In this document: positions 1 through 14,054 of the stretch, in pieces | Layout of the letters: each line of letters opens with the position of its first letter | How positions within the stretch are numbered: position 1 is the first letter of the stretch | Origin: Sporofaciens sp. SGI.106 | GTDB taxonomy: Bacteria > Bacillota > Clostridia > Lachnospirales > Lachnospiraceae | Direction: 5' to 3' | NCBI RefSeq assembly: GCF_050314255.1 | Contig: NZ_JBNPMZ010000003.1 | Span: forward strand, 62,204 to 126,203 | DNA length: 64,000 bases | Position numbers and translations under genes: made by a program | Notes under the pieces: generated by a model | Seen by the model: only the letters and a program-made list of their open reading frames with translations | What the model was told of the DNA's origin: nothing | The model's database searches: none

Positions 1-469
1 CTGCCTTTTCGTCCAGTATTCCTGTAGTTTCTGTCATATAATCTGCCATACTGCTATATTTATAGCGAACAGGATTCTTTATCATCCCCGCTTTTACCGG
101 ATTTAAATGAATATATCTCAAACACGTCCAGAAATACCTCTCATTTTCGATACATTCACTCATGAAGCGATTCTGGAACACATGTCCATTACGGTGGTGT
201 TTATAATTATAATAAGATGCGTATTCGGCCAAAACTCTAGCCATGAATAAAGATAACGTTTCGATTTCTGCCCTGATAATAAAATGAGCATGATTAGACA
301 TAATACAATATGAATATATTTCAACCTTGATTTTTCCTAAAGTCTTTAGAATAATACTCTTCAAGAATATTTTTTCACGCTGCATATTAAATATTTTCTC
401 TTTATTGATACCTTTTACTACAACGTGATAAATACCGGTTGTACTCTTCTTTCTTCTGTGTGTTGCCAC
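1..469 (-). mobile_element. IS200/IS605-family Y1 (HUH) transposase, RAYT-like, partial (runs off the window start)
   Basis: Minus-strand translation from GTG at 469 reads ...TTGIYHVVVKG...CIMSNHAHFII...YKYSS, i.e. YHVV and HxH motifs of Y1 transposases. GGAGGG RBS 6 nt upstream. ORF continues past position 1. Confidence 0.65.
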
Positions 470-484
470 CTTATCCCTCCTTTT

Positions 485-571
485 TATGCAATTAGGGACA
501 GGTACAAATACAATTGGGTACACCACAAATGTTAATTCAGGACGTAGCAAAATGCATTTTGCTACGTCCCC
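485..571. repeat. IS200-like end / REP-like element: two CAATTGGGTACA-type direct repeats followed by a 30-bp perfect palindrome (540-569)
   Basis: GGACGTAGCAAAATGCATTTTGCTACGTCC is a perfect palindrome. Immediately upstream of the transposase start. A second copy is at 56590-56690. Confidence 0.6.
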
Positions 572-576
572 TTTTT

Positions 577-885
577 TTAGCTAAGTTCAACTTTTACTGC
601 CTCTTCCGGCTTAAACTCATTCTCCAGATCATAGATATTGTGTCCTGTAGATTCTCCCAGAACTCTTCCCTCCAGAGAATAGCAGCGGATAAATCTCTTC
701 ACATCGATGCTGGACCAGTGCTCTACATCCCAGCTCATGTATCCGTCTGCATCTGATTTTTTCTCTCCCAGATACAAGTCTACCTGGCGGCCGTTTCTCA
801 TCAACTCAATGAGACCTTTGGTTCCATCCACTTCTAACTCTTCTTTTTTTACTGAATCGTACACTTTCATGCTTATTCCCTCCAA
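577..885 (-). CDS. hypothetical protein (102 aa)
   Basis: ORF only. No recognisable motif. Confidence 0.3.
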   Translation of the reverse strand: MEGISMKVYDSVKKEELEVDGTKGLIELMRNGRQVDLYLGEKKSDADGYMSWDVEHWSSIDVKRFIRCYSLEGRVLGESTGHNIYDLENEFKPEEAVKVELS

Positions 886-932
886 TGCATTTTTGAAAAT
901 TCTGATACTAAGAATTATACCTTTTTTACCTG

Positions 933-1616
933 CTAATGTAAAGAGTCCCGCTCCGCGAGCAATAGCTTTTCACTATATTTAAGAAGCTTCGCCGTATCCT
1001 TCATCAATGCAGATATTCTGATATGCTCAAGTGCCGGAACATTATTCTTCATGGAATCATAGGTCTTCTCATCGATACGAAATCCAAACTGGATTGCAAA
1101 GCGGATTGCGCGGAATATTGTTCTTGGATTTTTCTCGATACTTCTTTCATCGCAGCATCTGATGATTTTATTTTCCATATCCTCTTTTCCACCCATGTAA
1201 TCCACGATTTCCCGACTGTCAATATCATAAGCCATAGCATTCATGGTGAAATCCCGATTACATAGATCTTCTTCCAGACTATTTCCTTTGAATTTGACAA
1301 GATCAATTTTTTCATTATTAATGATAGCGATCACATATCCGACGATACTGCCGGATGCATCGTATTCAATGTTGTTCTCCTTCAATACCTGAACAATTTC
1401 TTCCGGTGATGCTGAGCAGCAGAAATCATAATCATCCGGCGTGCGTTCCAATAACATATCTCTGACGCATCCTCCTACTAAGTATATTTCATATCCCCTT
1501 CTTTTCATCAGATTATGTATCGTCACGACATAGTCCGGAAGTTCACAGTTGTGTTTATATGTTCTTTTTTCCTTCATTCTTAACCTCTTTTTCTTCTTCA
1601 ATCCTTTATCAACCAT
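933..1616 (-). CDS. poly(A) polymerase / CCA-adding-enzyme family nucleotidyltransferase, short (head domain only)
   Basis: GGCVRDMLLERTPDDYDF matches the GGxVRDxLLG...DxD head-domain motif. At 227 aa it is shorter than canonical CCA enzymes. Start may be the internal Met at 1577. Confidence 0.55.
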   Translation of the reverse strand: MVDKGLKKKKRLRMKEKRTYKHNCELPDYVVTIHNLMKRRGYEIYLVGGCVRDMLLERTPDDYDFCCSASPEEIVQVLKENNIEYDASGSIVGYVIAIINNEKIDLVKFKGNSLEEDLCNRDFTMNAMAYDIDSREIVDYMGGKEDMENKIIRCCDERSIEKNPRTIFRAIRFAIQFGFRIDEKTYDSMKNNVPALEHIRISALMKDTAKLLKYSEKLLLAERDSLH

Positions 1617-1712
1617 TTGCAGGACTCAGCCTTTCAAGACTTGCTCGCGAGTCTTGAGAGGGATTCGGGCCTTTACTAATCCGAATCCCTGCACATCTTC
1701 GCACAGCGCATA

Positions 1713-3572
1713 CTATGCCTGCTCCAGCACACCGGCATAAAGATTGTAATATATACCTCTTTTATCAATAAGCTCCTCATGTGTACCGGTCTCTACCACA
1801 CGCCCCTGATCAAGAACTACGATTTTATCCGCATTTTTAATTGTAGAAAGTCTGTGTGCAATCACGAAAACGGTTCTGCCCTTCATCAATGTATCCAGCC
1901 CGCAGTCGATAAGCATCTCCGTTCTTGTATCGATAGAGCTTGTCGCCTCATCCAGTATCAGCACCGGGAATTGTCCGACAGAAGCTCTGGCAATGGCAAG
2001 AAGCTGTCGCTCTCCCTGGCTCAGAGCTGCACCGGCATGTGTCAGAACCGTATCATATCCATCAGGGAGATTGCCAATAAAATAATCGGCATTGGCCAGC
2101 TGTGCAGCCTTTCTGACATCCTCATCTGAGGCATCCAGACGTCCATATCTGATATTTTCTGCAACAGTGTCGGTAAATAAATGTGTTTCCTGAGGAACCA
2201 TACCTGCAGCACGCCTCAAATCCGACTTCTTAATATCCCGGATATTGATGTCATCAAAATATATTTCTCCCGAACGGATTTCATAAAGCCTGTTCAGCAG
2301 GTTAATGATTGTCGTTTTTCCCGCTCCTGTAGTGCCCACAATAGCAATCTTCTGTCCCGGTTGGGCATGCAGATTAAAATCCCGAAGCACGGTCTGATTT
2401 TCCGTATAACCGAATACAACATGTTCAAAGGAAATCTTTCCCTCACAGGGTATGCAGGTTCCATCTTCCAGTTTCCATGCATATTTTCCTGTGTACGTTT
2501 CACACTCCTGTACGTGTTCGCCATCCATTGTGCAGTTGACAAGTGACACCTTTCCTTCATCGATTTCCGGTTCCTGATTCAGAAAATCAAATACTCTCTC
2601 TGCTCCTGCCAGTGCTGAAAACAGATTATTTACCTGCTTGGAAATTCTGGTTACCGGTGAGATCAGGTTCCGGTAATACACAAGAAAGGCTCCGACCGTG
2701 CCCACATCCGCCGCGCCATACAGGGACAAGGCACAACCGCAGGCTGCCACGATCGTATATCCGATATTCGTAAGTCCCTTTGTGAGACTGAACATGCTGT
2801 CAGCAAAAAAATCCGACTTACCGGCTGTCTGAAAAAGCTCTTTATTGATATCACCGAATTTCTTCTTTACTTTTTCTTCCCGTGTAAATGCCTTTATCTC
2901 CATTTTACCATTGATCATTTCCTCCCCGTAAGCATTCAGCTCACCAAGAGAACGCTGCTGACCGATAAAATACACTGCTTTGTTACCAACCAGAAACTTT
3001 AAAGTCAGGGCAAGAAGTGACACACATAGAACAACTACTATTGCCAACGGAATATTTACGAAGAAAATGGTCAGCAAAATGGATAGGCACGTAACCACTC
3101 CTTCAATAATTCTTGGAAAGCTCTGTCTTAACATATTGCTTAATGCATCCACGTCATTAGAATAATAGCTCATAATCCTTCCATTATTGTTCGTACTGAA
3201 ATACGAAACAGGAAGCTTTTCCATTGCCTCAAACATTTCGCTTCTGACCTGACACATAATATTATTACTGATTCCGGCCATAATACCATTCTGTATAAAT
3301 AACGTTGTTACCGAGCAAAGATAAAGCACCGCCATGATAGACAGTATCCGCAAGAATCCGGACATATCCGGATTTTTCTGCCCAATCAGAGGCACAATAT
3401 AATCATTGATAGCCGGTTTTAGATAATAGGTTGCACGTACACCGCTTATGGAACTGATAATTACACATATAAAAACAATGAACAGGCGCACCCTGTAGGA
3501 AGCCATGTATTTGAACAACCTGAAAAAGACCTGTTTAGCATTATTCGGTTTGTTTCTTTTCTTACCGCCCAT
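1713..3572 (-). CDS. ABC transporter ATP-binding/permease protein (exporter half-transporter), with Cys4 insert in the NBD
   Basis: 6-TM N-terminal domain. Walker A GTTGAGKTT, signature LSQGERQ, Walker B ILILDEAT. Start moved to MGGKKRNK (ATG 3572) with GGAGG RBS. Confidence 0.85.
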   Translation of the reverse strand: MGGKKRNKPNNAKQVFFRLFKYMASYRVRLFIVFICVIISSISGVRATYYLKPAINDYIVPLIGQKNPDMSGFLRILSIMAVLYLCSVTTLFIQNGIMAGISNNIMCQVRSEMFEAMEKLPVSYFSTNNNGRIMSYYSNDVDALSNMLRQSFPRIIEGVVTCLSILLTIFFVNIPLAIVVVLCVSLLALTLKFLVGNKAVYFIGQQRSLGELNAYGEEMINGKMEIKAFTREEKVKKKFGDINKELFQTAGKSDFFADSMFSLTKGLTNIGYTIVAACGCALSLYGAADVGTVGAFLVYYRNLISPVTRISKQVNNLFSALAGAERVFDFLNQEPEIDEGKVSLVNCTMDGEHVQECETYTGKYAWKLEDGTCIPCEGKISFEHVVFGYTENQTVLRDFNLHAQPGQKIAIVGTTGAGKTTIINLLNRLYEIRSGEIYFDDINIRDIKKSDLRRAAGMVPQETHLFTDTVAENIRYGRLDASDEDVRKAAQLANADYFIGNLPDGYDTVLTHAGAALSQGERQLLAIARASVGQFPVLILDEATSSIDTRTEMLIDCGLDTLMKGRTVFVIAHRLSTIKNADKIVVLDQGRVVETGTHEELIDKRGIYYNLYAGVLEQA

Positions 3573-3573
3573 A

Positions 3574-5298
3574 TTACACTGACCTCCGCTGACTTTCATA
3601 AATCTCACCATATATCCTGCTCTTGGCCAACAGTTCCTCATGACTTCCGACAGCGTCTATTTCTCCGTCATTGAGCACCACAATTTTATCGGCATTCTGT
3701 ATAGAAGACAAACGCTGCGAAATCATAACAATCGTTGTATCCTTATACTCTTTTAACAGAGAATTGATGATTCTTCCTTCTGTAGCATTGTCCACAGCAC
3801 TCAGGCTATCATCAAAGATGAGGATTTTCGGCCTTTTCAACAATGCACGGGCAATACAGAGTCTCTGCCTTTGCCCGCCGGAAACGGTCAATCCTCCCTG
3901 TCCAATCTGCGTGTCATATCCGTCCGGAAACGACATGATAAAATCATTGGCATCAGCTGCGCAGCAGGCCTTTACAATTTCCTGAGGGGATGCGTCTTCA
4001 TTTCCCCACAGAAGATTCTCTTTTATCGTCCCGGAAAAAAGAACACAATGCTGGGGAACCAGTCCGATTGTCTGCCGCAGCGTTCCAAAACTGTAATCCC
4101 GTATATTCCTGCCGCCAACCTCAATCGTTCCACTCATACACTCATAAAATCTGGGAATGAGATTAATCAAAGAAGTTTTTCCCGAGCCGGAAGAACCGGT
4201 AATCCCTACAAATTCTCCTGATTTGATGTGAATACTAATATTCTTCAAAACCCGTTTTGTCTCATCATTATAGTAACTGAATTTTACATTTTCAAAAATG
4301 ACCGAGCCATCTTCCGGTAAAATGTCAGCATTTTCCATATCTTCAAAGGCGGGTTCTGTATTGATAATCTCGAAAACTCTATCCAGAGAAATCTGTGCAC
4401 TCAGCACCGGAACCATAATCAGTGCAACAATATAAATCTGCAAAAGAATCTGATTCGTGTAACTGATCACACAGAAAAGGTCTCCCGCCTGCATGTTGCC
4501 GGCAATAATTGAGCGGCCCCCCACATACATGATCAGGAGGATGCAGATATTCATTACCATGTGAAGAAGCGGGTCATTTAATACCGTAATGCTTTCTGCC
4601 GCAAATGATTCTTCCTTAAGCTCGTTAGCTTTTCTTATAAACTTTTCATTTTCATACTGCTCTCTGGAAAAGGCCTTGACCGTTCTCTCTGCCGTCACAG
4701 CCTCCTCCAATATGTTACTCAATTCATCATACCGCACAAACATCTGGCGATAATGCTTTAAGGCTACCCGAACAATAAAGAAGAGGATAACTACAAACAA
4801 CACGGCAGCAACAATAAATATCCATGACACATTTGCATAGACACGGACCGTCATAAAAATGGTACATGCGATCATAATCGGACATCGAATCATGGAATGA
4901 TACATTCCCAGAGCTTTTTTTATAAAATTCATGTCTGTGGACATTCTGGTAAGAATCGTCGCAGGCCCATATTTGTCAGTATCAGAAAAGGGAAGCTCCT
5001 GAACCTTCTCAAACAGGGCGTTTCGAAGATTTCTGGTAATCCCCGATGACCAGGTCGCAATCAGATAGCTTTCCAGCATCCCCACAAATACAAGTATGAC
5101 AGAAGCACCGATCATGAGCACACCTTTACTTATGATAATACTCATGTCCTTCCTGTTGATTCCCAGATCCAGCATATCACTCATAAGATATGGAATCAGA
5201 ATTTCCAGTGCCACATCTACCAGAATGGCAAATGGCAGAAGTGCCAGAGCATATTTATATTTACCTGAATAATTCCATAATAATTTAATTCTTTTCAT
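3574..5298 (-). CDS. ABC transporter ATP-binding/permease protein (exporter half-transporter, partner of 1713-3572)
   Basis: TMD plus NBD with GSSGSGKTS, LSGGQRQ, ILIFDDSLSAVD. Confidence 0.85.
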   Translation of the reverse strand: MKRIKLLWNYSGKYKYALALLPFAILVDVALEILIPYLMSDMLDLGINRKDMSIIISKGVLMIGASVILVFVGMLESYLIATWSSGITRNLRNALFEKVQELPFSDTDKYGPATILTRMSTDMNFIKKALGMYHSMIRCPIMIACTIFMTVRVYANVSWIFIVAAVLFVVILFFIVRVALKHYRQMFVRYDELSNILEEAVTAERTVKAFSREQYENEKFIRKANELKEESFAAESITVLNDPLLHMVMNICILLIMYVGGRSIIAGNMQAGDLFCVISYTNQILLQIYIVALIMVPVLSAQISLDRVFEIINTEPAFEDMENADILPEDGSVIFENVKFSYYNDETKRVLKNISIHIKSGEFVGITGSSGSGKTSLINLIPRFYECMSGTIEVGGRNIRDYSFGTLRQTIGLVPQHCVLFSGTIKENLLWGNEDASPQEIVKACCAADANDFIMSFPDGYDTQIGQGGLTVSGGQRQRLCIARALLKRPKILIFDDSLSAVDNATEGRIINSLLKEYKDTTIVMISQRLSSIQNADKIVVLNDGEIDAVGSHEELLAKSRIYGEIYESQRRSV

Positions 5299-8159
5299 TA
5301 TACATACTTCCTGAATTCATCAAGATACAGATTGATAAAATGTTCCACGTTTTCTTTCTTATAAAGAGACGCATGATATTTGAACAGTATCACAGGCTTC
5401 TCATCCCTGTCTCCTTCCAGCATGATGACGTAAAATACATTCGTATTTGCTTTATTATTGTTGATCAGAGACTCTGATCTGACACCATCCGGTATCCACT
5501 GATGTTCTGCCTTCTCGTCACATGGAATATAATTTACGGTAATTGTGTCATCCAAAACAGGACGGGTATCAAAATCTCCCGGTGACAGATCGCTGTATTC
5601 CATATTTTCCTGATTAATGCGGCGTACTTCCTGAATGATGGACTCCATACTTTCAAATTCGGACAGATCCATTGCCACCGGCAGGGCAGTGATCAAAAGT
5701 CCTGTCATATCCTGTTTCAGCCTCGTATTTCTGCCGCCGTACAGCCAGTTTACCACTTCCCTGCTGCTTCCATTGTAGCGTCCCATGGTTCTGAGGGTCA
5801 GCGCGATAAGAAACTCTAATGGCGTAGCATCAATTCCGGACAGCTTCGCCTTAAATTCCTCTGCTGAAACATCCAGCGTAACTGCAATTGTCTCTATCTC
5901 ACAGGAGTCTTCATCATAATCAAATTCAGGATGACGATCAAAGGTTTCATCCGGTTTCACTATATTTTTTATATTACTTCTGATATCGGATAAATATTGT
6001 AAATAGGAGCAATAATAATCCGGAGCCAGCTCTTCGCCCTTCAGAACAGAAAAAATATCTCTTACCGTGATATCCATAGAGCTTTTATCCGAAATAATAT
6101 GCTGCATGTCCAAAAACAGATAAATCGTTTCCGGCGTACAGTAAATCCTGCTTCGATACAAAGGACCGTCTAACAGATGAAATGGCTGTACCATTTTCTG
6201 TTTTTCTTCCTCAAATTCTTCTTCCGAAAAATATATAATCTCAGGTACCGTTACCACTTCAGGCGCTATCCTCTGAACAACACTTCCGTCTTCCTGTCTG
6301 CTCAGGACCAGACTGTAGGAAGGATGATATCTGAGGACCTGATACACGGCTTCTGCCAGCTTCTCCGGATCCACTGTACCGGATGGGATGCTAATCAGCT
6401 GTGGTGTATTGGCCAGAACAATCCCCGGAAAGGATTCCCAGTATCCAAAATAATGCTTCTGATATTCACTCAGCTCGTAGGTTTTCTGTCTGTAAGCGGC
6501 ATCATTTTTCCAATCGATATACTTACCTTTATTCAATTTCAATGCAATCTTCTTCGGTGTCCTGCTGTTTACGATATCCTTTACAAGAAGTCCGTCATCA
6601 TCCAGCATTGCAATCAGCTCCATGACCGACAAAGAATCTCCTCCGATATCGAAGAAATCATCGTTGCGTCCAATTTTCGGAAGATTCAGTATTTTCTCCA
6701 TCGCAGCACAGATCTTTTTTTCCTTCTCATCTGCCGGTGCCTCATAGTCGCGCTGATACGTCTTCTGTTGCGGCGCTTCCAGCCTCTTTCTGTCATATTT
6801 TCCACTGACAGTCAACGGGAATTCATCCATTTCCACAAAATAGGCAGGAATCATGAAAGGCGGCAGCTTCTCTCTTATGTTCGTCTCAATGACTTCCCGT
6901 GTCACATCTTTCCGGTCCGTAATATAGTATGCACAAAGATATGGCTTACCGGATGCATCCCGGAATCCTTTTACAATACTTGCTTTTACACCAGGAACGT
7001 TGCAGATTGCAGCTTCTACTTCAAAAGGCTCCACTCTCTGCCCGTTGATTTTAATCATCCAGTCTTTGCGGTTGACATACACAACATTTCCATTCTCATC
7101 CTTATATCCCATATCGTTGGTTCGAAGCCTGGTCATTCCGTTTTCAAGCTTCTCAAAGGCTTTTGCCGTTTCTTCGGGCTTATGATAATATCCCTCTGCC
7201 ATATAACCGGTCACACAGATTTCCCCTTCTGTAAGATTCGGAACCTCATGTCCTTCTTCATCCAGAATTTCCACTGTAAATCCTCCAAATGCTTTTCCTA
7301 CCGGTGTATTGTCGTATTTCTTATCAATAATGAAATATGTCAGAGCGGTAAATGCTTCTGTCATACCATAAATATTGTAAATCTCGTGCTCGTCCGAATG
7401 TATTCCTACAACTCTCTGCCCGAAAGTAAGCACTCTCTTCAACCCTCTGGTGTGTCCGAAAAAGCGGAGCATACCGGGATTGATGCCACTGCATACGATG
7501 TTATGCTTATTAAAGTAGTCCGTCATAAGATTCACATCCTTGCGAACCTCTTCACTCAGTAAATGAACCGTTCCTCCAAGATAGAGCGGCCCCAGGCAGT
7601 CATGAGAAAAAGCCGCAAAAGACATGGATACTGCCGCAGCTGCAATGATTTCGTCAAGTCCCTCAAACAGCATAGCAGAACGCTTAATATTTTCATCCAC
7701 ACACTTCATGCTGTAATATACCCCTTTGGGATGTCCTGTAGAACCGGAAGTATAATTCATACAGACAATCTGATCCCAGGGAATATCGTTTTCCATATAA
7801 GGTTCGAATTCTTCAATATCCTCAAAAAAGGATTCTGTGATTACCAGCGGTGAGCCACAGTCATTCATAATATACTGTATCCGATCCTCCGGGTATTCTA
7901 AAACTGCAGGCACCAGAGCCAGCCCGGCCCGGATGACTCCATAATAAGCGGCGACGTATTCCGCACATCTTCCCATGCGGATAACAATAAAGCTTCCTGC
8001 AGGGAAATCTAAACTTCTCAGCTTGGACGCAACACGGCCAACCAGTATATCAAAGTCTTTGTAGCTTATGCTTCTTTTCCCGTTCTGATCCACAATAGCG
8101 ATCGTATTCGGGATTCTGTCTGCGGTTTTCGTAAGTACTTCAAGAAAATTCTCCATCAT
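5298..8159 (-). CDS. single-module non-ribosomal peptide synthetase, A-T-C architecture
   Basis: Adenylation core motifs YTSGSTGHPKG, YGMTEA, YRTNDMG, GRKDWMIKINGQRVE, LPPFMIPAYFV...SGKYDRK. Carrier motif FFDIGGDSL. C-terminal ~420 aa condensation-like domain starting LSEYQKHYFGYW, with QHIISD in place of HHxxxDG. Start set to MMENF (8159) with AGGAGA RBS. Confidence 0.8.
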   Translation of the reverse strand: MMENFLEVLTKTADRIPNTIAIVDQNGKRSISYKDFDILVGRVASKLRSLDFPAGSFIVIRMGRCAEYVAAYYGVIRAGLALVPAVLEYPEDRIQYIMNDCGSPLVITESFFEDIEEFEPYMENDIPWDQIVCMNYTSGSTGHPKGVYYSMKCVDENIKRSAMLFEGLDEIIAAAAVSMSFAAFSHDCLGPLYLGGTVHLLSEEVRKDVNLMTDYFNKHNIVCSGINPGMLRFFGHTRGLKRVLTFGQRVVGIHSDEHEIYNIYGMTEAFTALTYFIIDKKYDNTPVGKAFGGFTVEILDEEGHEVPNLTEGEICVTGYMAEGYYHKPEETAKAFEKLENGMTRLRTNDMGYKDENGNVVYVNRKDWMIKINGQRVEPFEVEAAICNVPGVKASIVKGFRDASGKPYLCAYYITDRKDVTREVIETNIREKLPPFMIPAYFVEMDEFPLTVSGKYDRKRLEAPQQKTYQRDYEAPADEKEKKICAAMEKILNLPKIGRNDDFFDIGGDSLSVMELIAMLDDDGLLVKDIVNSRTPKKIALKLNKGKYIDWKNDAAYRQKTYELSEYQKHYFGYWESFPGIVLANTPQLISIPSGTVDPEKLAEAVYQVLRYHPSYSLVLSRQEDGSVVQRIAPEVVTVPEIIYFSEEEFEEEKQKMVQPFHLLDGPLYRSRIYCTPETIYLFLDMQHIISDKSSMDITVRDIFSVLKGEELAPDYYCSYLQYLSDIRSNIKNIVKPDETFDRHPEFDYDEDSCEIETIAVTLDVSAEEFKAKLSGIDATPLEFLIALTLRTMGRYNGSSREVVNWLYGGRNTRLKQDMTGLLITALPVAMDLSEFESMESIIQEVRRINQENMEYSDLSPGDFDTRPVLDDTITVNYIPCDEKAEHQWIPDGVRSESLINNNKANTNVFYVIMLEGDRDEKPVILFKYHASLYKKENVEHFINLYLDEFRKYV

Positions 8160-8169
8160 TTCCCGTCTC

Positions 8170-8739
8170 CTATTTCTGTTCTTTTCTCCATTCCCGGGCT
8201 GCATCTTTCAGCTCCTCCATAAACTGAGCCTTTGCCGGTCCGTACTTGGACGGCTCATCTGCATATTGGGAAATCAGTTTCCGCTTAAGCGCAATATATG
8301 CCTCCCTGGCTTCAGCGTTCGCTGTACAGTAATCCCTTAAATTAATATAGTCATTCCATTTCTTCGTATCCTTTAATACCACATGGATATGACATGCGCG
8401 TTCTGTCGTTCCCGGATTATCCTTATAAAACTCTCTCTGCCCTGTAATAACCTCTCCTGAATAATGGATACCAAGTTTTTCCAGGTCATCCACATATGGA
8501 AGCACATCTTCCAGATTGTTCACAGCAACCGCTATATCGATCAACGGTTTTGAGTACATCCCCGGAATAGCAGTGCTGCCCACATGCTGTACATCCACCG
8601 CATCCTTCATCACACTTTTCAAAACGTCTACCATCTCCTGACCGAGAACTGCCCAATTCGGATCATATTCCTCCATCTGAAGTTTTCCATCTTCTACACC
8701 AAGTCCCATTGTATCTTCCTCCTTTTTTGTATTTACCAT
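8170..8739 (-). CDS. GrpB family protein (nucleotidyltransferase-fold, UPF0157)
   Basis: EEYDPNW... and VQHVGSTAIPGMYSKPLIDI motifs typical of GrpB. Start uncertain. Confidence 0.7.
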   Translation of the reverse strand: MVNTKKEEDTMGLGVEDGKLQMEEYDPNWAVLGQEMVDVLKSVMKDAVDVQHVGSTAIPGMYSKPLIDIAVAVNNLEDVLPYVDDLEKLGIHYSGEVITGQREFYKDNPGTTERACHIHVVLKDTKKWNDYINLRDYCTANAEAREAYIALKRKLISQYADEPSKYGPAKAQFMEELKDAAREWRKEQK

Positions 8740-8751
8740 CCGAAACCTCTA

Positions 8752-10068
8752 TTAGTGATTCCGGATAAACTTCATCCACGCCTTGATTTCTTTTTCTTTT
8801 CCGTTGTCACTCGCCTCATAGAACCGCGTATCTTTTATTTCTTCAGGAAGATACTGCTGCTCTACAAAATGATTTGGATAGTCATGAGCATATTTATATC
8901 CGATTCCATGTCCCAGATTTTTTGATCCGCCGTAATGAGCGTCCTGAAGGTGAGCGGGAACCGTTGTCTTATAGTTTTTTACATTTTCCATGGCCGCTGA
9001 AATGGCATTTACTGCCGAGTTGCTCTTGGGTGCCGTTGCTACGTAGAGCACTGCCTGCGACAGTATAATCTGGGCTTCGGGCATTCCTACCCGCTCAACG
9101 GCCTGAGCTGCCGACACAGCTACTGTAAGCGCCATGGGATCTGCATTTCCCACATCCTCTGAGGCACAGATCATAATCCTGCGGGCGATGAACTTGATAT
9201 CCTCCCCGGCATACAGCATTTTTGCCAGATAGTACACCGCAGCATCCGGATCGGATCCCCGCATGCTTTTGATAAATGCGGAAATGGTATCATAATGGTT
9301 GTCACCTGTTTTGTCGTAACGGACTACCCGCTTCTGGATACATTCGCTGGCCACATCCAGCGTCAGGTGTATCTTTCCATCTGCACTCCTCTCCGTAGTG
9401 AGAATGCCAAGTTCCACTGCGTTCAATGCATTTCTGGCATCTCCACCGGCAATGTCGGCCAGAAATTCCAGCGCATCCTCATCGATTACCGCCCGGTAGC
9501 TTCCCATCCCTTTCTCTGTATCATAAACCGCGCGCTTCAAAAGCACTTTAATATCCTCTTTATCCAGAGGATGCAGCTCAAAAATGCTGGAACGGGAAAT
9601 GAGAGCCCCATTCACCTCAAAATATGGATTTTCCGTGGTTGCTCCAATCAGGATAATCGTTCCGTCTTCCACAAACGGCAGAAGATAATCCTGCTGCCCC
9701 TTATTGAAACGGTGAATCTCATCTACAAAGAGGATCGTCTTCTTTCCATACATTCCCTGCAGTTCTTTTGCCTTTTTCACCACTTCTTCCATATCCTTCT
9801 TGCCCGCCACCGTCGCATTGATCTGTGTAAATTCCGCGCTGGTGGTATTGGCAATCACCTTCGCCAAAGTGGTCTTTCCTGTTCCCGGAGGACCGTAGAA
9901 AATGATCGAGCTTATTTTATCTGCTTTTATGGCACGATATAAAAGCTTGTCCTTTCCTATAATATGCTGCTGCCCCACCACTTCATCCAGCGTGGTCGGA
10001 CGGAGTCTGGAAGCCAAAGGCGACTCCTTCTCCATATTCTGTTCCCGCATATAATCAAATAAATCCAT
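8752..10068 (-). CDS. rarA: replication-associated recombination protein A (AAA ATPase RarA/MgsA)
   Basis: LASRLRPTTLDE, Walker A GPPGTGKTT, and a MgsA C-terminal region. Start set at MDLFDY with GAGGA RBS. Confidence 0.9.
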   Translation of the reverse strand: MDLFDYMREQNMEKESPLASRLRPTTLDEVVGQQHIIGKDKLLYRAIKADKISSIIFYGPPGTGKTTLAKVIANTTSAEFTQINATVAGKKDMEEVVKKAKELQGMYGKKTILFVDEIHRFNKGQQDYLLPFVEDGTIILIGATTENPYFEVNGALISRSSIFELHPLDKEDIKVLLKRAVYDTEKGMGSYRAVIDEDALEFLADIAGGDARNALNAVELGILTTERSADGKIHLTLDVASECIQKRVVRYDKTGDNHYDTISAFIKSMRGSDPDAAVYYLAKMLYAGEDIKFIARRIMICASEDVGNADPMALTVAVSAAQAVERVGMPEAQIILSQAVLYVATAPKSNSAVNAISAAMENVKNYKTTVPAHLQDAHYGGSKNLGHGIGYKYAHDYPNHFVEQQYLPEEIKDTRFYEASDNGKEKEIKAWMKFIRNH

Positions 10069-10113
10069 TTCCTCACCTGTCCTGTTTCTTTTCAAAATCA
10101 CATCTGTCCAAAA

Positions 10114-10830
10114 CTATTTCAGAAGATCCCGCACTGTTTCTCCTGCAATAAGAAGACCTGCCACCGGAGGCACGAAAGAAATACTTCCCGGGACCGATCT
10201 GCGGCTTCCCTTGTCTTCTCCTGTATCTCTCCCGGAAATATCCACAGGTTTTTCCTTAGAATATAATACTTTCAAATGATAAATCCCTCTTGCCTTCAGC
10301 TCCCTGCGCATAACCTTGCACAAAGGGCAGACCGAGGTTTTGCTGATATCCGTAATTTCAAATAATTCTCCGTGAAGCTTATTGCCGGTTCCCATGCTGC
10401 TGATCATGGGAATCCCCCGCTTTTTCGCCTCCTCCACCACAACCAGTTTGGCTGTGACGGTATCGATTGCATCAATAATATAATCTATTTTCTCTTCAAA
10501 TAACTGTTCCACATTATCCGGCAGCACGAACATCTCATAGGTTTTCACCTGAATTTCCGGACAAATGTCCGCAATCCGCTTCTCCATTACCTTTGTTTTA
10601 TACTGGCCTACCGTACTGTGATAGGCGATAGACTGGCGGTTAATATTGGTAAGTGATACCGTGTCGTTATCCACCAGTATCAGCCTTCCAACGCCGCAGC
10701 GGGCCAGCGCCTCGATACAGTGTGAGCCGACACCACCCACTCCCAGCACCATCACTGTGGCACTTTTTAATTTTTCAATTCCTTCTTCCTCCAATAAAAG
10801 CTCTGTTCTTGAAAATTCATTTATCATCAT
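10114..10830 (-). CDS. tcdA: tRNA threonylcarbamoyladenosine dehydratase (ThiF/MoeB-family E1-like)
   Basis: VLGVGGVGSHCIEALARCGVGRLILVDNDTVSLTNINRQ Rossmann/E1 motif. Size about 240 aa. Confidence 0.8.
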   Translation of the reverse strand: MMINEFSRTELLLEEEGIEKLKSATVMVLGVGGVGSHCIEALARCGVGRLILVDNDTVSLTNINRQSIAYHSTVGQYKTKVMEKRIADICPEIQVKTYEMFVLPDNVEQLFEEKIDYIIDAIDTVTAKLVVVEEAKKRGIPMISSMGTGNKLHGELFEITDISKTSVCPLCKVMRRELKARGIYHLKVLYSKEKPVDISGRDTGEDKGSRRSVPGSISFVPPVAGLLIAGETVRDLLK

Positions 10831-10862
10831 ACAAACTTCTTTCTTACAAATTATGTAACAGT

Positions 10863-11654
10863 TCAATTTAAAATCAGCTCATCCACGGTTACAAATTCAT
10901 ATCCTTTTTCCTGCAGAATATCAATAACCCGAAGAGCGGCATCCACCGAGCTGTCATAGCAGTCATGCAATAAAATAATATCATTTTCCCCGGTTTCCGT
11001 CACTACTTTATTCACAATTTCATCCGCATTCTTTGTTGTCCAGTCCAGAGGATCCACGCTCCACATGACCGGAAGCACATCCATCTCCATCTCCAATTCT
11101 CTCTGCCAGGATCCAAAAGGAGGACGCATAAACTCCGGACATGTTCCGGTAATCTTTTCTATCACCTGGTTTGCCTCTTCTATTTCCCTGTATGCTGTCT
11201 CATTACTCACCCTGGATATTTCCACATGATGATAAGTATGGTTGCCGATCAGATGTCCTTCCTCGTCAATGCGCTTCACAATTTCCGGATACCTTTCTGC
11301 ATTTTCTCCGATCAGGAAAAAAGTAGCCTTCACTCCCCGTTCTTTGAGTCCGTCCAAAAGTCTGGGGGTACAGGCAGCACTGGGTCCATCGTCGAAAGTC
11401 AGCGCAATCTGAGGCTTTTCCATTGTCACCGAGGCACTCACATAAGAAACCGCCTCCCTGGTCTGAGCCGGAGTAAGCTGTTTTTCCTTTTTTACTATAT
11501 CCTGCCTGAAAAATCCACCGTCCCCGATTCCTCCCTGTATTTTCGCAGACAAAACGACCAGTATTCCCAAAGCAAATATTCGTATCCATTTTGTTCTATT
11601 TTTACAGGTTCTTTCCAAATGCCACATTTTTTCATACCCTATACGCTCAATCAA
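10863..11654 (-). CDS. polysaccharide deacetylase (NodB-homology domain), membrane-anchored
   Basis: ALTFDDGP motif and HTYHH motif. N-terminal TM segment. Confidence 0.8.
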   Translation of the reverse strand: MIERIGYEKMWHLERTCKNRTKWIRIFALGILVVLSAKIQGGIGDGGFFRQDIVKKEKQLTPAQTREAVSYVSASVTMEKPQIALTFDDGPSAACTPRLLDGLKERGVKATFFLIGENAERYPEIVKRIDEEGHLIGNHTYHHVEISRVSNETAYREIEEANQVIEKITGTCPEFMRPPFGSWQRELEMEMDVLPVMWSVDPLDWTTKNADEIVNKVVTETGENDIILLHDCYDSSVDAALRVIDILQEKGYEFVTVDELILN

Positions 11655-11744
11655 CTATGATACCTACGGATTGTTCCGTGCTTTGCACTCCCACAATCCT
11701 GGTATCCTATTATATGAAAATAACAAATCTCATATGTTGCACGT

Positions 11745-11772
11745 TGCATTATAAATTGGGGAATGTTATAAT
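11745..11772 (+). promoter_or_regulatory. sigma-70-like promoter (TTGCAT-16-TATAAT) for the MATE gene
   Basis: TTGCAT at 11745 and TATAAT at 11767, about 75 nt upstream of the ATG at 11847. Confidence 0.4.
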
Positions 11773-11846
11773 GAAAAACGTTGTGTGAAAACGAAAAATA
11801 AAATGTAAAACTACGAAAGACAAATGAAATCAATGGAGGAATTCTG

Positions 11847-13211
11847 ATGACCGAAACGACAATGCAGGAAAATAAGATGGGGGTAATGCCTGTCCCCAAA
11901 CTTTTAATCACCATGTCACTTCCCATGATGATTTCCATGCTGGTACAGGCTCTTTATAATATCGTAGACAGTATGTTCGTTGCCAAACTAAGCGAAGAAG
12001 CCCTGACAGCGGTATCTCTGGCTTTCCCTGTTCAGAACCTGATGATTGCTGTAGCTGCCGGCACCGGAGTAGGTATCAATGCGTTATTGTCCCGCAATTT
12101 GGGTGAAAAGAACTTTGAGGGAGCGAATAATGCTGCGAAAAACGGTATTTTTCTAGGATTAATGAGCTGTCTGCTATTTGCCCTAATCGGCGGATTGAGC
12201 GCTCATACATTTTTCCGGGCGCAGACCGATAACCCGGTAATCTTAACCTATGGAACGCAGTATATGACCATCATCTGCGTGATATCCGTCGGAATTTTTA
12301 TGCAGGTTACTTTTGAGCGGCTGATGCAGTCTACCGGAAAGACCATTTACAATATGATCAGCCAGGGAACCGGAGCCATTGTGAACATTATCCTGGATCC
12401 GATTCTTATCTTTGGATTATTCGGTCTTCCCAGGCTGGAAGTCGCCGGTGCAGCTATCGCTACCATTATCGGTCAGCTGGTTGCTGTCAGCATTTCCTTT
12501 TATTTTAATCTGACAAGAAATAAAGAGATCAACATTAACATGATGCATTTTCGTCCTCACGCCAGGACGATCGCAGCCATTTATGCAGTGGGCGTTCCAT
12601 CCATCATCATGCAGGCAATCGGTTCCGTCATGACCTTTGGTATGAACAAAATACTCCTGATGTTCTCTTCCACTGCGGCAGCCGTATTCGGTGTATATTT
12701 CAAGCTGCAGAGCTTCATTTTCATGCCGGTATTCGGACTGAATAATGGTATGATTCCGATCATCGCCTATAACTACGGTGCGAGAAACAAAAAAAGGATC
12801 ACACAAACGATCTGGCTGAGTGTAGTGATTGCCGTAAGCCTGATGCTGGTAGGGCTGGTCATCTTCCAGACCATGCCGGAATTCCTGCTTCGCACTCTAT
12901 TCGATGCCTCAGATCACATGGTAGAGATCGGAGTCCCGGCACTGCGCATCATTTCCTTAAGCTTTTTATTTGCCGGATTCTGTATCGTGGCAGGTTCCGT
13001 ATTCCAGGCTTTGGGAAATGGAGTTTACAGTCTGATCGTATCTGCGGCAAGACAATTATTTGTTATCCTTCCGGTAGCATACATCTTTGCCCGGGTATTC
13101 GGACTTCACATGGTATGGTGGTCCATTGCCATCGCAGAGATTGTCTCCCTGACATTCTCCTCACTTCTGCTTCGCAGGATATATGTAAAGAAAATAAAAC
13201 CATTGCCATAA
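11847..13211 (+). CDS. MATE family efflux transporter
   Basis: 12-TM protein with MATE-like N-terminus (PVPKLLITMSLPMMISMLVQALYNIVDSMFV). Confidence 0.85.
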   Translation: MTETTMQENKMGVMPVPKLLITMSLPMMISMLVQALYNIVDSMFVAKLSEEALTAVSLAFPVQNLMIAVAAGTGVGINALLSRNLGEKNFEGANNAAKNGIFLGLMSCLLFALIGGLSAHTFFRAQTDNPVILTYGTQYMTIICVISVGIFMQVTFERLMQSTGKTIYNMISQGTGAIVNIILDPILIFGLFGLPRLEVAGAAIATIIGQLVAVSISFYFNLTRNKEININMMHFRPHARTIAAIYAVGVPSIIMQAIGSVMTFGMNKILLMFSSTAAAVFGVYFKLQSFIFMPVFGLNNGMIPIIAYNYGARNKKRITQTIWLSVVIAVSLMLVGLVIFQTMPEFLLRTLFDASDHMVEIGVPALRIISLSFLFAGFCIVAGSVFQALGNGVYSLIVSAARQLFVILPVAYIFARVFGLHMVWWSIAIAEIVSLTFSSLLLRRIYVKKIKPLP

Positions 13212-13228
13212 ACTCAAAGTTATCATAA

Positions 13229-13275
13229 AAACCAGGCGACTACTGCTATCCGATGGCAGTAGCCTCCTGGTTTTC
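13229..13275. terminator. bidirectional intrinsic terminator-like hairpin between convergent genes
   Basis: CCAGGCGACTACTGC ... GCAGTAGCCTCCTGG stem flanked by A/T runs. Confidence 0.4.
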
Positions 13276-13277
13276 TT

Positions 13278-14054
13278 TTATACCGGTATTGATTCCAGTA
13301 CCTGTGACAACTCGGCAAAGTTAATCTCAAGTCTTCCATCATAGATACGAACCGGCACTTTATCATGAAAGGAATAAATGAGTGGAATCGGATCTTCTTC
13401 AAAGAAGTAAGTTACTACTTTCCTCTTCTGCAGATCAACTATCCAGTATTCTCTCACACCTGCTTCCATGTATTTTATCATTTTCTTTGTATAATCCATC
13501 TTTCTTGTTGATGTTGAAGTAATCTCTATCACCAGGTCAGGTGCTCCATAAAGTCCCTGCTTTAGCAACCGTTCTTTTCTGCATGTCACAACAAGATCCG
13601 GCTGAACTATCGTCCTGTCATCACAGTCCAGCTGTACGTCAAAGGGCGCCGGGATCACCAAACAACCTCCCTGATTTTCCCTGATGAACAATTCAAACAA
13701 AAACGCCAGTTTCATCACAAGAATCTGATGACCGGTCTGTGGCGCTTCCATGAAAATAAGTTCCCCGTCTATCAGTTCAGCCCTCACATCCTCCGGCAAT
13801 CCCCGATAATCTCCTATGGTATACGTGTTTTTCTTTTCGTAAGCCATACTTGTTTCACGGGTTTTATTCAATTCTTCGGTTTCATTGTCCAGCAAAACTC
13901 TCTCCAGTGCCATTTTCGTATCGTATTGTGGTGATTTTATCTCTCCGCTCAATATTTTTTTAATCGTTTCCACCGGCACCCCGGAAAGCTCCGCAAGTTC
14001 TTCTGTAGTAATCCCCTTTTCTTCTTTTTTTTGTTTCAGAATATCAACTATCAT
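13278..14054 (-). CDS. XRE-type HTH fused to Uma2-family (DUF820, PD-(D/E)xK) putative endonuclease
   Basis: N-terminal ELAELSGVPVETIKKILSGE HTH. C-terminal ELIDGEL...PDLVIEITSTSTRKMDYTKK...EYWIVD, typical Uma2. Confidence 0.7.
   Translation of the reverse strand: MIVDILKQKKEEKGITTEELAELSGVPVETIKKILSGEIKSPQYDTKMALERVLLDNETEELNKTRETSMAYEKKNTYTIGDYRGLPEDVRAELIDGELIFMEAPQTGHQILVMKLAFLFELFIRENQGGCLVIPAPFDVQLDCDDRTIVQPDLVVTCRKERLLKQGLYGAPDLVIEITSTSTRKMDYTKKMIKYMEAGVREYWIVDLQKRKVVTYFFEEDPIPLIYSFHDKVPVRIYDGRLEINFAELSQVLESIPV

Follow-up and report, generated by a model that had tools for sequence, protein, structure and literature searches.

A single-module A-T-C synthetase cassette of gut and rumen Lachnospiraceae with a GrpB partner, a paired ABC transporter and a possible role in the synthesis of an acylated metabolite

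We have analysed a stretch of 64,000 nucleotides from Sporofaciens sp. SGI.106 (Lachnospiraceae; assembly GCF_050314255.1, contig NZ_JBNPMZ010000003.1, positions 62,204 to 126,203 of the forward strand), referred to as the window throughout, and focused on a compact gene cassette near its beginning. The cassette encodes a GrpB family protein, an enzyme similar to nonribosomal peptide synthetases (NRPSs) and consisting of one adenylation (A), one thiolation (T) and one terminal condensation (C) domain, two ATP-binding cassette (ABC) half-transporters and a short nucleotidyltransferase (NTase). Genes and domains were assigned by Pfam and NCBIfam profile searches of the window proteins, and the starts of GrpB, the synthetase, ABC2 and the NTase were reset according to ribosome-binding sites and the lengths of homologues. 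The residue numbers of the synthetase follow its 968-amino acid form (open reading frame from 8204). The related proteins are labelled with P-numbers and their loci, including those from gut and rumen metagenomes, with L-numbers. The cassette is composed of the following features:

8170-8709, minus strand: GrpB family protein (PF04229, E 3e-39), 179 aa from an ATG with AGGAGG; the longer open reading frame from 8739 would give 189 aa
5298-8159, minus strand: A-T-C single-module NRPS-like synthetase, 953 aa; the longer open reading frame from 8204 gives 968 aa
6798-8132, minus strand: adenylation domain, residues 25-469 (AMP-binding, E 3e-50, and AMP-binding_C)
6594-6716, minus strand: thiolation (carrier) domain (PF00550, E 1e-7), FFDIGGDSLS, with Ser524 at 6633-6635
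5331-6488, minus strand: terminal condensation domain, residues 573-958 (PF00668, E 2e-28), with His702 at 6099-6101
3574-5298, minus strand: ABC half-transporter 1 (ABC1), 574 aa, transmembrane domain followed by nucleotide-binding domain (NBD) (PF00664 and PF00005)
1713-3572, minus strand: ABC half-transporter 2 (ABC2), 619 aa (ABC_membrane and ABC_tran), GGAGG before the ATG
1578-1712, minus strand: intergenic spacer between ABC2 and the NTase, with two hairpins (1659-1690 and 1634-1657)
933-1577, minus strand: short class-II nucleotidyltransferase (PF01743, E 5e-28), 214 aa from an ATG with AAGAGG; the longer open reading frame from 1616 would give 227 aa

In the first 12 kb of the window the minus strand carries, in order, genes for a polysaccharide deacetylase, a ThiF/TcdA-like protein, RarA/MgsA, GrpB, the synthetase, ABC1, ABC2, the short NTase, an orphan protein of 97 aa and a cut IS200-like gene. 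The tight packing of the cassette behind rarA, mentioned already in a preliminary description of this DNA, was confirmed: all five genes lie on the same strand, the rarA/MgsA gene (minus strand; MgsA_C, E 2e-73) stands directly upstream of GrpB with 42 nt between its stop and the GrpB start, and no terminator-like site was called between the two. The ATG of ABC1 overlaps the stop codon of the synthetase, and that of ABC2 comes one base past the TAA of ABC1. The two hairpins described earlier at 1617-1712 do exist, with stems of 10 bp (1659-1690) and 8 bp (1634-1657), but neither is followed by a U tract and the stability ascribed to them was not borne out: the spacer RNA folds with -39.9 kcal/mol (z -1.6 versus shuffles), and 14 out of 200 shuffles fold equally well. 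No terminator-like site was called in this spacer, and an Rfam scan of positions 1-14000 gave no match within the cassette. The same or a nearly identical synthetase is annotated also in a 'Lachnoclostridium sp.' metagenome-assembled genome (Lachnospiraceae), where the consecutive accessions reveal an identical gene order.

In order to see what is constant in this arrangement, we have examined the relatives P0002-P0017, which are 44-54% identical to the synthetase, and compared six loci with synthetases of 45-54% identity. The metagenome scan with a motif-trimmed synthetase alignment provided five close loci, and most of the close contigs were short. When the whole synthetase alignment was used to scan the genome collection, matches to the generic YTSGSTGxPK motif prevailed, and only generic NRPSs of at most 31% identity were recovered. 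The six loci have the following composition:

L001: GrpB fused to the synthetase in one open reading frame (P0002), ABC, ABC, NTase on the same strand
L083: GrpB, synthetase, ABC, ABC, convergent NTase
L084: GrpB, synthetase, ABC, ABC, convergent STAS-APH gene
L085 (Butyrivibrio): GrpB, synthetase, convergent NTase, no ABC genes
L094: synthetase, ABC, ABC
L095: GrpB, synthetase, contig end

GrpB stands directly upstream of the synthetase in all five loci where the 5' side is readable, and in one of them the two are fused. The genes beyond the cassette are unrelated in the four loci where they could be read (L001, L083, L084 and L085). The cassette is a real unit, conserved but patchy in gut and rumen Lachnospiraceae, and its patchy, mobile distribution agrees with the horizontal acquisition suggested before. 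The NTase is beside the cassette in three of the loci, on the same strand in L001 and convergent in L083 and L085. Two NTase-fold proteins bracketing the synthetase, which the preliminary description found unusual, are accordingly non-random neighbours, but the NTase is not a strict operon member as had been assumed, given its convergent transcription in two relatives; it is a frequent but dispensable accessory of the cassette.

In L093, a locus of a more distant clade, a 391-aa protein (5119-6294, minus strand) is built from a GrpB domain, the GS motif of which is changed (HVGGTS), and a degenerate A-domain N-terminus devoid of YTSGSTG. It is colinear with the P0002 fusion (E 2e-35) and located 1.7 kb from an intact A-T-C gene. 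By its sequence it looks like a decayed paralogue of the fused form, and because of this colinearity the GrpB-synthetase fusion does not seem to be a one-off architecture. Among 96 unique loci of the wider synthetase family GrpB was found only in the close clade and in L093.

The synthetase has exactly one module in A-T-C order, as stated earlier: Pfam recognised AMP-binding, AMP-binding_C, PP-binding and Condensation and nothing else. Its motifs were aligned with those of 19 relatives, and the residues of the A-domain pocket were aligned to LgrA with Phe234 and Asp/Glu240 as anchors. The core motifs A1-A10 are recognisable (NYTSGSTGHPKGV, NIYGMTEA, LRTNDMGY, NRKDWMIKINGQRVEP, SGKYDRK). The activity of the A domain had been made dependent on the equivalents of Lys517 and Asp235, and here the answer was divided. 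The lysine is present as Lys469 (6798-6800) and is invariant in the 19 relatives, as are the carrier residues Gly521 and Ser524. The aspartate is replaced by Ala197 (7614-7616), where SFAAF is aligned to the SFSFDGS segment in LgrA. An Asp is absent from this site in all 19 relatives: 14 have Ala, including all 12 that are at least 45% identical to the window synthetase, and the other five have Val or Ile. The pocket code reads AAHPTGITAK, and in 13 of the 14 relatives of at least 44% identity it conforms to AA[HNVQ]P[TSA]G[VIL][TA][ACV]K. Since the Lys517 equivalent and all other core motifs are intact and under evident constraint, the A domain would not be a dead one. Since Asp235 is Ala throughout the clade, it probably selects a carboxylic acid lacking an alpha-amino group instead of an amino acid. 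The same replacement makes the amino-acid-amine conjugate, which had been proposed as a product, unlikely.

The C domain carries the motif MQHIISDK at the C3 site, thus the earlier reading of QHIISDK with the second, catalytic His is correct. His702 and Asp706 are invariant in the 19 relatives, and the fold, as judged from profile matches only, appears to be kept as well. Most relatives have HHII[ST]D at this site (HHIITDA among them); of the canonical HHxxxDG, the window protein has lost the first His as well as the Gly. When a profile of the domain was searched against the PDB, the solved Bacillales domains of LCL and epimerization (E) type were matched with E-values from 3e-36 to 1e-19 (BacC 3e-36, the LCL domain of TycC 8e-26, the E domain of TycA 3e-20, and SrfA-C), and in the same search the C-starter domain of the CDA synthetase gave a weak score (E 0.2). 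On these profile scores it may be described as a divergent C domain that groups with LCL and E domains and barely with C-starters. In a representative library the same profile brought up mostly giant multi-module NRPSs, which score high because their many domains add up. Because there is no second or downstream carrier domain, the C domain would acylate a free amine or alcohol; release as an amide onto a free amine is plausible, and release as an ester is equally possible.

A different arrangement was seen in two loci with stand-alone A-T didomain proteins (L174 5897-8710 and L175 716-3532), which share 40% identity with the A-T portion of the window protein and have no C domain. They follow a gene for a DUF3089 (lipase-like) protein, which, standing in place of the C domain, is suggestive of an alternative release enzyme in this branch. 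Split T-C and stand-alone C relatives exist, too (P0503, P0505).

The two half-transporters differ from each other in their ATP sites. A motif scan revealed that the NBD of ABC1 is degenerate, with FDDS at the Walker B site, devoid of the catalytic Glu, and ISQR at the H-loop, devoid of the His. ABC2 has a canonical Walker B (LDEAT) and H-loop (IAHR), and its signature motif deviates (LSQGE). Such complementary asymmetry characterises obligate heterodimers in which one of the ATP sites is degenerate, and heterodimeric type IV ABC exporters of this kind include TM287/288, BmrCD, LmrCD and PatAB. The window pair shares with them the two adjacent halves of transmembrane and nucleotide-binding domains, the lack of the catalytic Glu and the H-loop His in one NBD and the deviant signature of the partner. 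The earlier designation as a heterodimeric ABC exporter is supported beyond mere adjacency because the losses in ABC1 and ABC2 are complementary, and the pair, in which one ATP site is degenerate and the other of the consensus type, is taken to be an obligate heterodimer. We infer that the direction of transport is export. ABC1 is 50-73% and ABC2 54-73% identical to the counterparts in L001, L083, L084 and L094, hence the ABC proteins (50-73%) are conserved at least as well as the synthetase (45-54%). Neither of them reached an NCBIfam equivalog cut-off.

GrpB (UPF0157) is a widespread family with a structure solved since 2006 (2nrk), and it is found also as the C-terminal domain of mycobacterial CoaE. 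The window protein matched the profile above the gathering score and has the GrpB fold with the family-invariant residues H, GS, KP.ID and HxH. Across 52 diverse GrpB proteins His42, Gly44, Ser45, Lys54, Pro55 and Asp58 are invariant and His109 is nearly so. The cassette-type proteins form a discrete group of 17 clusters with scores of 236-324 bits, separated by a gap from all others, which reach at most 174 bits, and four of the 17 clusters are on contigs of the same size as those carrying the synthetases P0006, P0007, P0010 and P0011. They differ from the rest of the family as a discrete subfamily that occurs only beside or fused to this synthetase clade. As the family is devoid of an established catalytic function, its synthetase context is new information about GrpB. 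Elsewhere GrpB is fused to an inorganic pyrophosphatase (P0315, PF00719, 292 aa), which hints at a pyrophosphate (PPi)-releasing chemistry of GrpB. The NTase fold of GrpB and its conserved residues, which resemble an active site, would agree with such a chemistry. A fusion of GrpB to a GNAT acetyltransferase (P0352) was also observed.

The short NTase consists of the head and the neck only, without the body and tail domains and PF12627. Its AlphaFold2 model (pLDDT 95) was matched by Foldseek to CCA-adding enzymes with a TM-score of about 0.8, the coverage being below one half for every target. The sequences GGCVRDM...DDYDF, KIDL and NRDFTMNA, and with them motifs A, B and C, are invariant in its subfamily, which comprises about 24 clusters of 199-250 aa well apart from the full-length enzymes, and all NCBIfam scores were far under the cut-offs. 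It shares with the class II CCA-adding enzymes and the bacterial poly(A) polymerase (PF01743) the head and the neck as well as motifs A (GGxVRD...DxD), B (RDxTxN) and C. It differs from the CCA-adding enzymes in its length of 214 aa, in the missing body, tail and PF12627, in the deletion of the flexible-loop segment and in the EDxxR site (motif D), which is not conserved, with EKNPR in the window protein as against DDDVA or EEAPT in relatives. A scan of viral contigs with the NTase found only ordinary phage CCA-type enzymes of about 30% identity.

Additional partners were recognised in the sister clades of the synthetase. The clade of 44% identity has a TIGR02172-type APH domain, which forms one protein with the C domain in L002 and L096 (L002 12881-13723) and is encoded directly after it in L097 and L098 (L097 12063-12893). 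The STAS-APH-TCAD9 protein of L084 (8887-10128, minus strand), which is convergent on the cassette, is homologous to this APH. In the 37% clade a PRK06762-type (uncharacterised) P-loop kinase of 175-180 aa is encoded divergently upstream of the synthetase (L092 2780-3307 and L093 7372-7914, both on the minus strand), and the two kinases are 67% identical. Each of the three related synthetase clades is thus associated with one transferase that would consume an NTP and act on hydroxyl groups. Because the sister clades swap GrpB for APH or for the P-loop kinase, a phosphoryl or nucleotidyl transfer step appears to be integral to the pathway. L092 has also genes for YfbR-like HD, NUDIX and NT5C nucleotidase proteins nearby.

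On the basis of these data we tentatively prefer a model, quite possible in our opinion but short of probable, in which the cassette makes and exports a small acylated metabolite with the participation of a nucleotidylation step by GrpB. The A domain would adenylate a carboxylic acid without an alpha-amino group, and the acid would be loaded as a thioester on the phosphopantetheine arm at Ser524. The terminal C domain, with His702 and Asp706, would then hand the acyl group on to a free amine or alcohol. GrpB, in complex with the synthetase, might transfer a nucleotidyl group, with release of PPi, to a hydroxyl in either the acceptor or the product. The kinases would fill the equivalent role in the sister clades, where likewise one NTP-dependent O-modification would be needed, either as tailoring or as transient activation or masking. 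Finally, the ABC1/ABC2 heterodimer would pump the product out. The head-only NTase could be a second, dispensable transferase of the same logic, swapped for STAS-APH in one relative and absent in others. The more specific proposal that GrpB is a catalytic NTase and an integral subunit of the assembly line is doubtful. It would either nucleotidylate the acceptor or product, so that a nucleotide-linked acyl conjugate, a type that would be new for gut bacteria, is exported, or install a CoA-derived group on the carrier independently of Sfp.

Several observations weigh against this model. The P0002 fusion in L001 is known from one contig of one sample. GrpB has a single Asp at the site where canonical Pol-beta NTases have DxD, and to our knowledge no enzymatic activity has been demonstrated for GrpB anywhere. 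The GrpB (UPF0157) domain of mycobacterial CoaE was reported to aid folding and not catalysis (PMC2765170, PMC13629385). The NTase is missing from L084, and in L176, which encodes a distant short NTase (P0189), no synthetase adjoins it in the sequence at hand, where the contig ends 670 bases upstream. The pocket code AAHPTGITAK matched nothing assignable. No phosphopantetheinyl transferase (PPTase) was seen in the window or in the close loci, the shortness of which means that this absence says little; Sfp-type transferases are present in six distant loci of the family (L122, L135, L112, L011, L009 and L154). Furthermore, the STAS-domain kinases and the partner-switching genes near the relatives could be regulators and not tailoring enzymes.

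Among the characterised systems, the one that comes nearest by its logic and its habitat is the fatty acid amide (FAA) pathway of gut Clostridia, represented by OaaA/OaaACP/OaaC of Coprococcus eutactus and the ebf and ecf clusters of Enterocloster (PMC13310621, PMC10871352). Its clusters encode a free-standing A enzyme, an acyl carrier protein (ACP) and a C enzyme together with a PPTase, an SCP2-like protein and a hydrolase, and the C enzymes have the motif (D/H)HxxxD[S/A] and belong to a clade beside the C-starter domains (PMC13310621, PMC10871352). The cassette could be a similar pathway, or one for an amino-acid-amine conjugate, in which the synthetase N-acylates a biogenic amine, and GrpB and the NTase are incidental or loosely coupled to it. 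The habitat and the taxon, down to the bacterial class, are common, and the same logic would operate, with one adenylating enzyme, a carrier and a condensation enzyme joining a non-alpha-amino acyl group to a free nucleophile (PMC13310621, PMC10871352). The absence of Asp235 suits a fatty or other non-amino acid, and the condensation motif is non-canonical at the first position and after the Asp in both: in the present family the Asp is followed by a residue other than Gly and the first position varies, which recalls the FAA motif. However, A, T and C make up one polypeptide in the cassette, and its partners are GrpB, the ABC heterodimer and the short NTase; the stand-alone A, ACP and C proteins are not present here, nor were the other FAA partner genes (PPTase, SCP2-like protein, hydrolase) found in the window or in the close loci. 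The FAA C domains group with C-starters, while the present one is LCL/E-like according to a crude profile test, in which no OaaC chain was among the PDB matches. Moreover, the fusion-level link to GrpB and the kinases of the sister clades would be left unexplained. The cassette shares the FAA logic but not the architecture, the partners or, by this crude test, the affinity of the C domain, and we regard this explanation as rather unlikely, though the likeliest of the alternatives.

The partners could also serve self-protection, with GrpB, the NTase and the kinases of the sister clades masking a toxic product by O-nucleotidylation or O-phosphorylation until it is exported, similarly to the ANT and APH enzymes and to phosphorylated protoxins. 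The folds of these partners are all well known from enzymes that modify antibiotics (Pol-beta NTase, APH, and a P-loop kinase, which gave a weak match of the chloramphenicol phosphotransferase type), and exporters always stand near the synthetase. Resistance enzymes are, however, rarely fused to a synthetase, and here there are fusions with GrpB at the N-terminus and with APH at the C-terminus. The cassette has no conserved phosphatase or phosphodiesterase that could do the unmasking, and neither GrpB nor the NTase matched PADLOC or a resistance family; this explanation is considered unlikely.

Quite improbable is that GrpB acts as a non-catalytic folding or activating partner of the A domain, analogously to the MbtH-like proteins and to the GrpB domain of CoaE. 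Its position directly upstream, the close-set or overlapping genes and the N-terminal fusion to the A domain would be in line with such a function, and so would the role reported for the UPF0157 domain in supporting the folding of CoaE instead of catalysis (PMC2765170, PMC13629385). On the other hand, the active site-like residues are invariant across the 52 diverse GrpB proteins, a pyrophosphatase-GrpB fusion exists, and the sister clades substitute kinases, not chaperones.

The priming of the carrier would be another role for GrpB, perhaps together with the NTase, by attaching a CoA-derived prosthetic group to Ser524 in the manner of CitX and MdcG, which are NTase-fold enzymes priming the ACPs of citrate lyase and malonate decarboxylase. 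GrpB is fused to the dephospho-CoA kinase in actinobacteria and to a carrier-containing synthetase here, and the Sfp-type transferase, lacking in the window and in the close loci, is present in the six distant family loci listed above. These arguments are wholly indirect, the absence of a PPTase from short loci means little, the sister clades that have only a kinase could not prime the carrier in this way, and the T domain has a standard GGDSL site that is served by ordinary PPTases; we regard the priming role as very improbable. The least probable of all is a tRNA- or RNA-linked step, where the NTase would extend or repair an RNA 3' end that the synthetase acylates or uses: the NTase is closest in sequence and structure to the CCA-adding enzymes and to poly(A) polymerase, and its catalytic carboxylates and ribose-sensing motif B are intact, but the aminoacyl-tRNA-related step contemplated earlier is unsupported because the tRNA-holding body and tail domains and PF12627 are missing, the flexible loop is deleted, the templating EDxxR motif is not conserved, and no tRNA gene or Rfam RNA lies near the cassette (the only tRNA gene of the window is at 58.8 kb, 50 kb off), and the NTase is dispensable in some cassettes.

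Returning to the preferred model with a GrpB-dependent nucleotidyl transfer, the capture of the acyl group by a free nucleophile has parallels. The VibH-type free-amine condensation is one example. Fungal single-module A-T-C enzymes, which participate in the synthesis of terpene-amino-acid meroterpenoids, release their product by free-nucleophile capture as well (PMC10720950). They have the same domain order, and the terminal C domain would work by the same logic as a releasing acyltransferase. The single-module A-T-C examples are fungal or proteobacterial, activate amino acids and keep Asp235, which distinguishes them from the present synthetase. We know of none that is paired with or fused to GrpB, APH or a CCA-type NTase. 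Our literature search did not find any paper linking GrpB or a CCA-type NTase to an NRPS, or any on the pattern of a one-module A-T-C ligase with an exporter and an NTP-dependent transferase.

Through the fusion-level link an orphan family, GrpB, gains its first clear pathway partner and with it a concrete, testable context. In gut and rumen anaerobes a design recurs in which a one-module A-T-C ligase is combined with an exporter and a single NTP-dependent transferase. Exported acyl conjugates of Lachnospiraceae from the FAA pathway are known to act on host receptors, so a related, chemically distinct class would be of interest for the chemistry of the microbiome. If GrpB turned out to be catalytic, this would be the first biochemical function for UPF0157, and the A-T-C clades would each need a dedicated transferase (GrpB, APH or the P-loop kinase). 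If the product were a plain N-acyl amide, the finding would be reduced to a new architectural variant of a known pathway.

The wider family consists of A-T-C proteins of about 960 aa and 30-35% identity, which are common in rumen and gut metagenomes, including Bacteroidales. Neighbours were counted within three genes of the synthetase in the 96 unique loci (L003-L012, L083-L173). The commonest one is a MATE exporter of about 580 aa (43 of 96 loci), followed by histidine kinases and extra A-T-C paralogues. TonB-receptor-like genes were counted in 16 loci, partner-switching genes (response-regulator-SpoIIE/HATPase_c_2/STAS) in 11, Acyl_transf_3 in nine and an Sfp-type PPTase in five. This pattern would suit regulated small-molecule synthesis and export better than defence. 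A defence-system reading, raised by distant relatives near TIR, HD-CE and STAND-like genes, was dropped, because exporters dominate the neighbours and the synthetase is absent from viral contigs. PADLOC gave no match for the synthetase, GrpB or the NTase. ABC1 and ABC2 matched other defence models over part of the nucleotide-binding domain (best mad3, E 5e-25 to 5e-27), and these matches are read as generic similarity of ATPase domains.

Further features around the cassette are the following:

2-469, minus strand: IS200/RAYT-like transposase gene (PF01797 Y1_Tnp, E 1e-10, matching positions 5-119 of the 121 in the profile), truncated at the window edge
580-870, minus strand: orphan open reading frame of 97 aa with a GGAGGG ribosome-binding site, preceded by TTTACA-17-TATAAT (914-942) and followed by a hairpin of 13 bp (540-569)

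The IS200/RAYT-like transposase, which had been placed at the boundary, is real. The orphan open reading frame was considered as a sixth member of the cassette and rejected: it matched no family, the related loci lack a homologue of it, and it is preceded by a strong promoter-like site. The MatE transporter gene (11847-13211, plus strand, 454 aa) on the other side was not counted as a part of the cassette either, being just 22-28% identical to the MATE genes of the wider synthetase family. Just upstream of the polysaccharide deacetylase gene (10863-11654) the minus strand gave a sub-threshold Rfam match to the Clostridiales-1 RNA (11658-11771; 34.7 bits versus a gathering score of 48, E 1.6e-4), overlapped by a promoter-like TTTTCA-18-TATAAT sequence at 11748-11777. 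Beyond the deacetylase, past the MatE gene, an HTH-Uma2 protein (putative restriction-endonuclease-like) is encoded at 13278-14054 on the minus strand.

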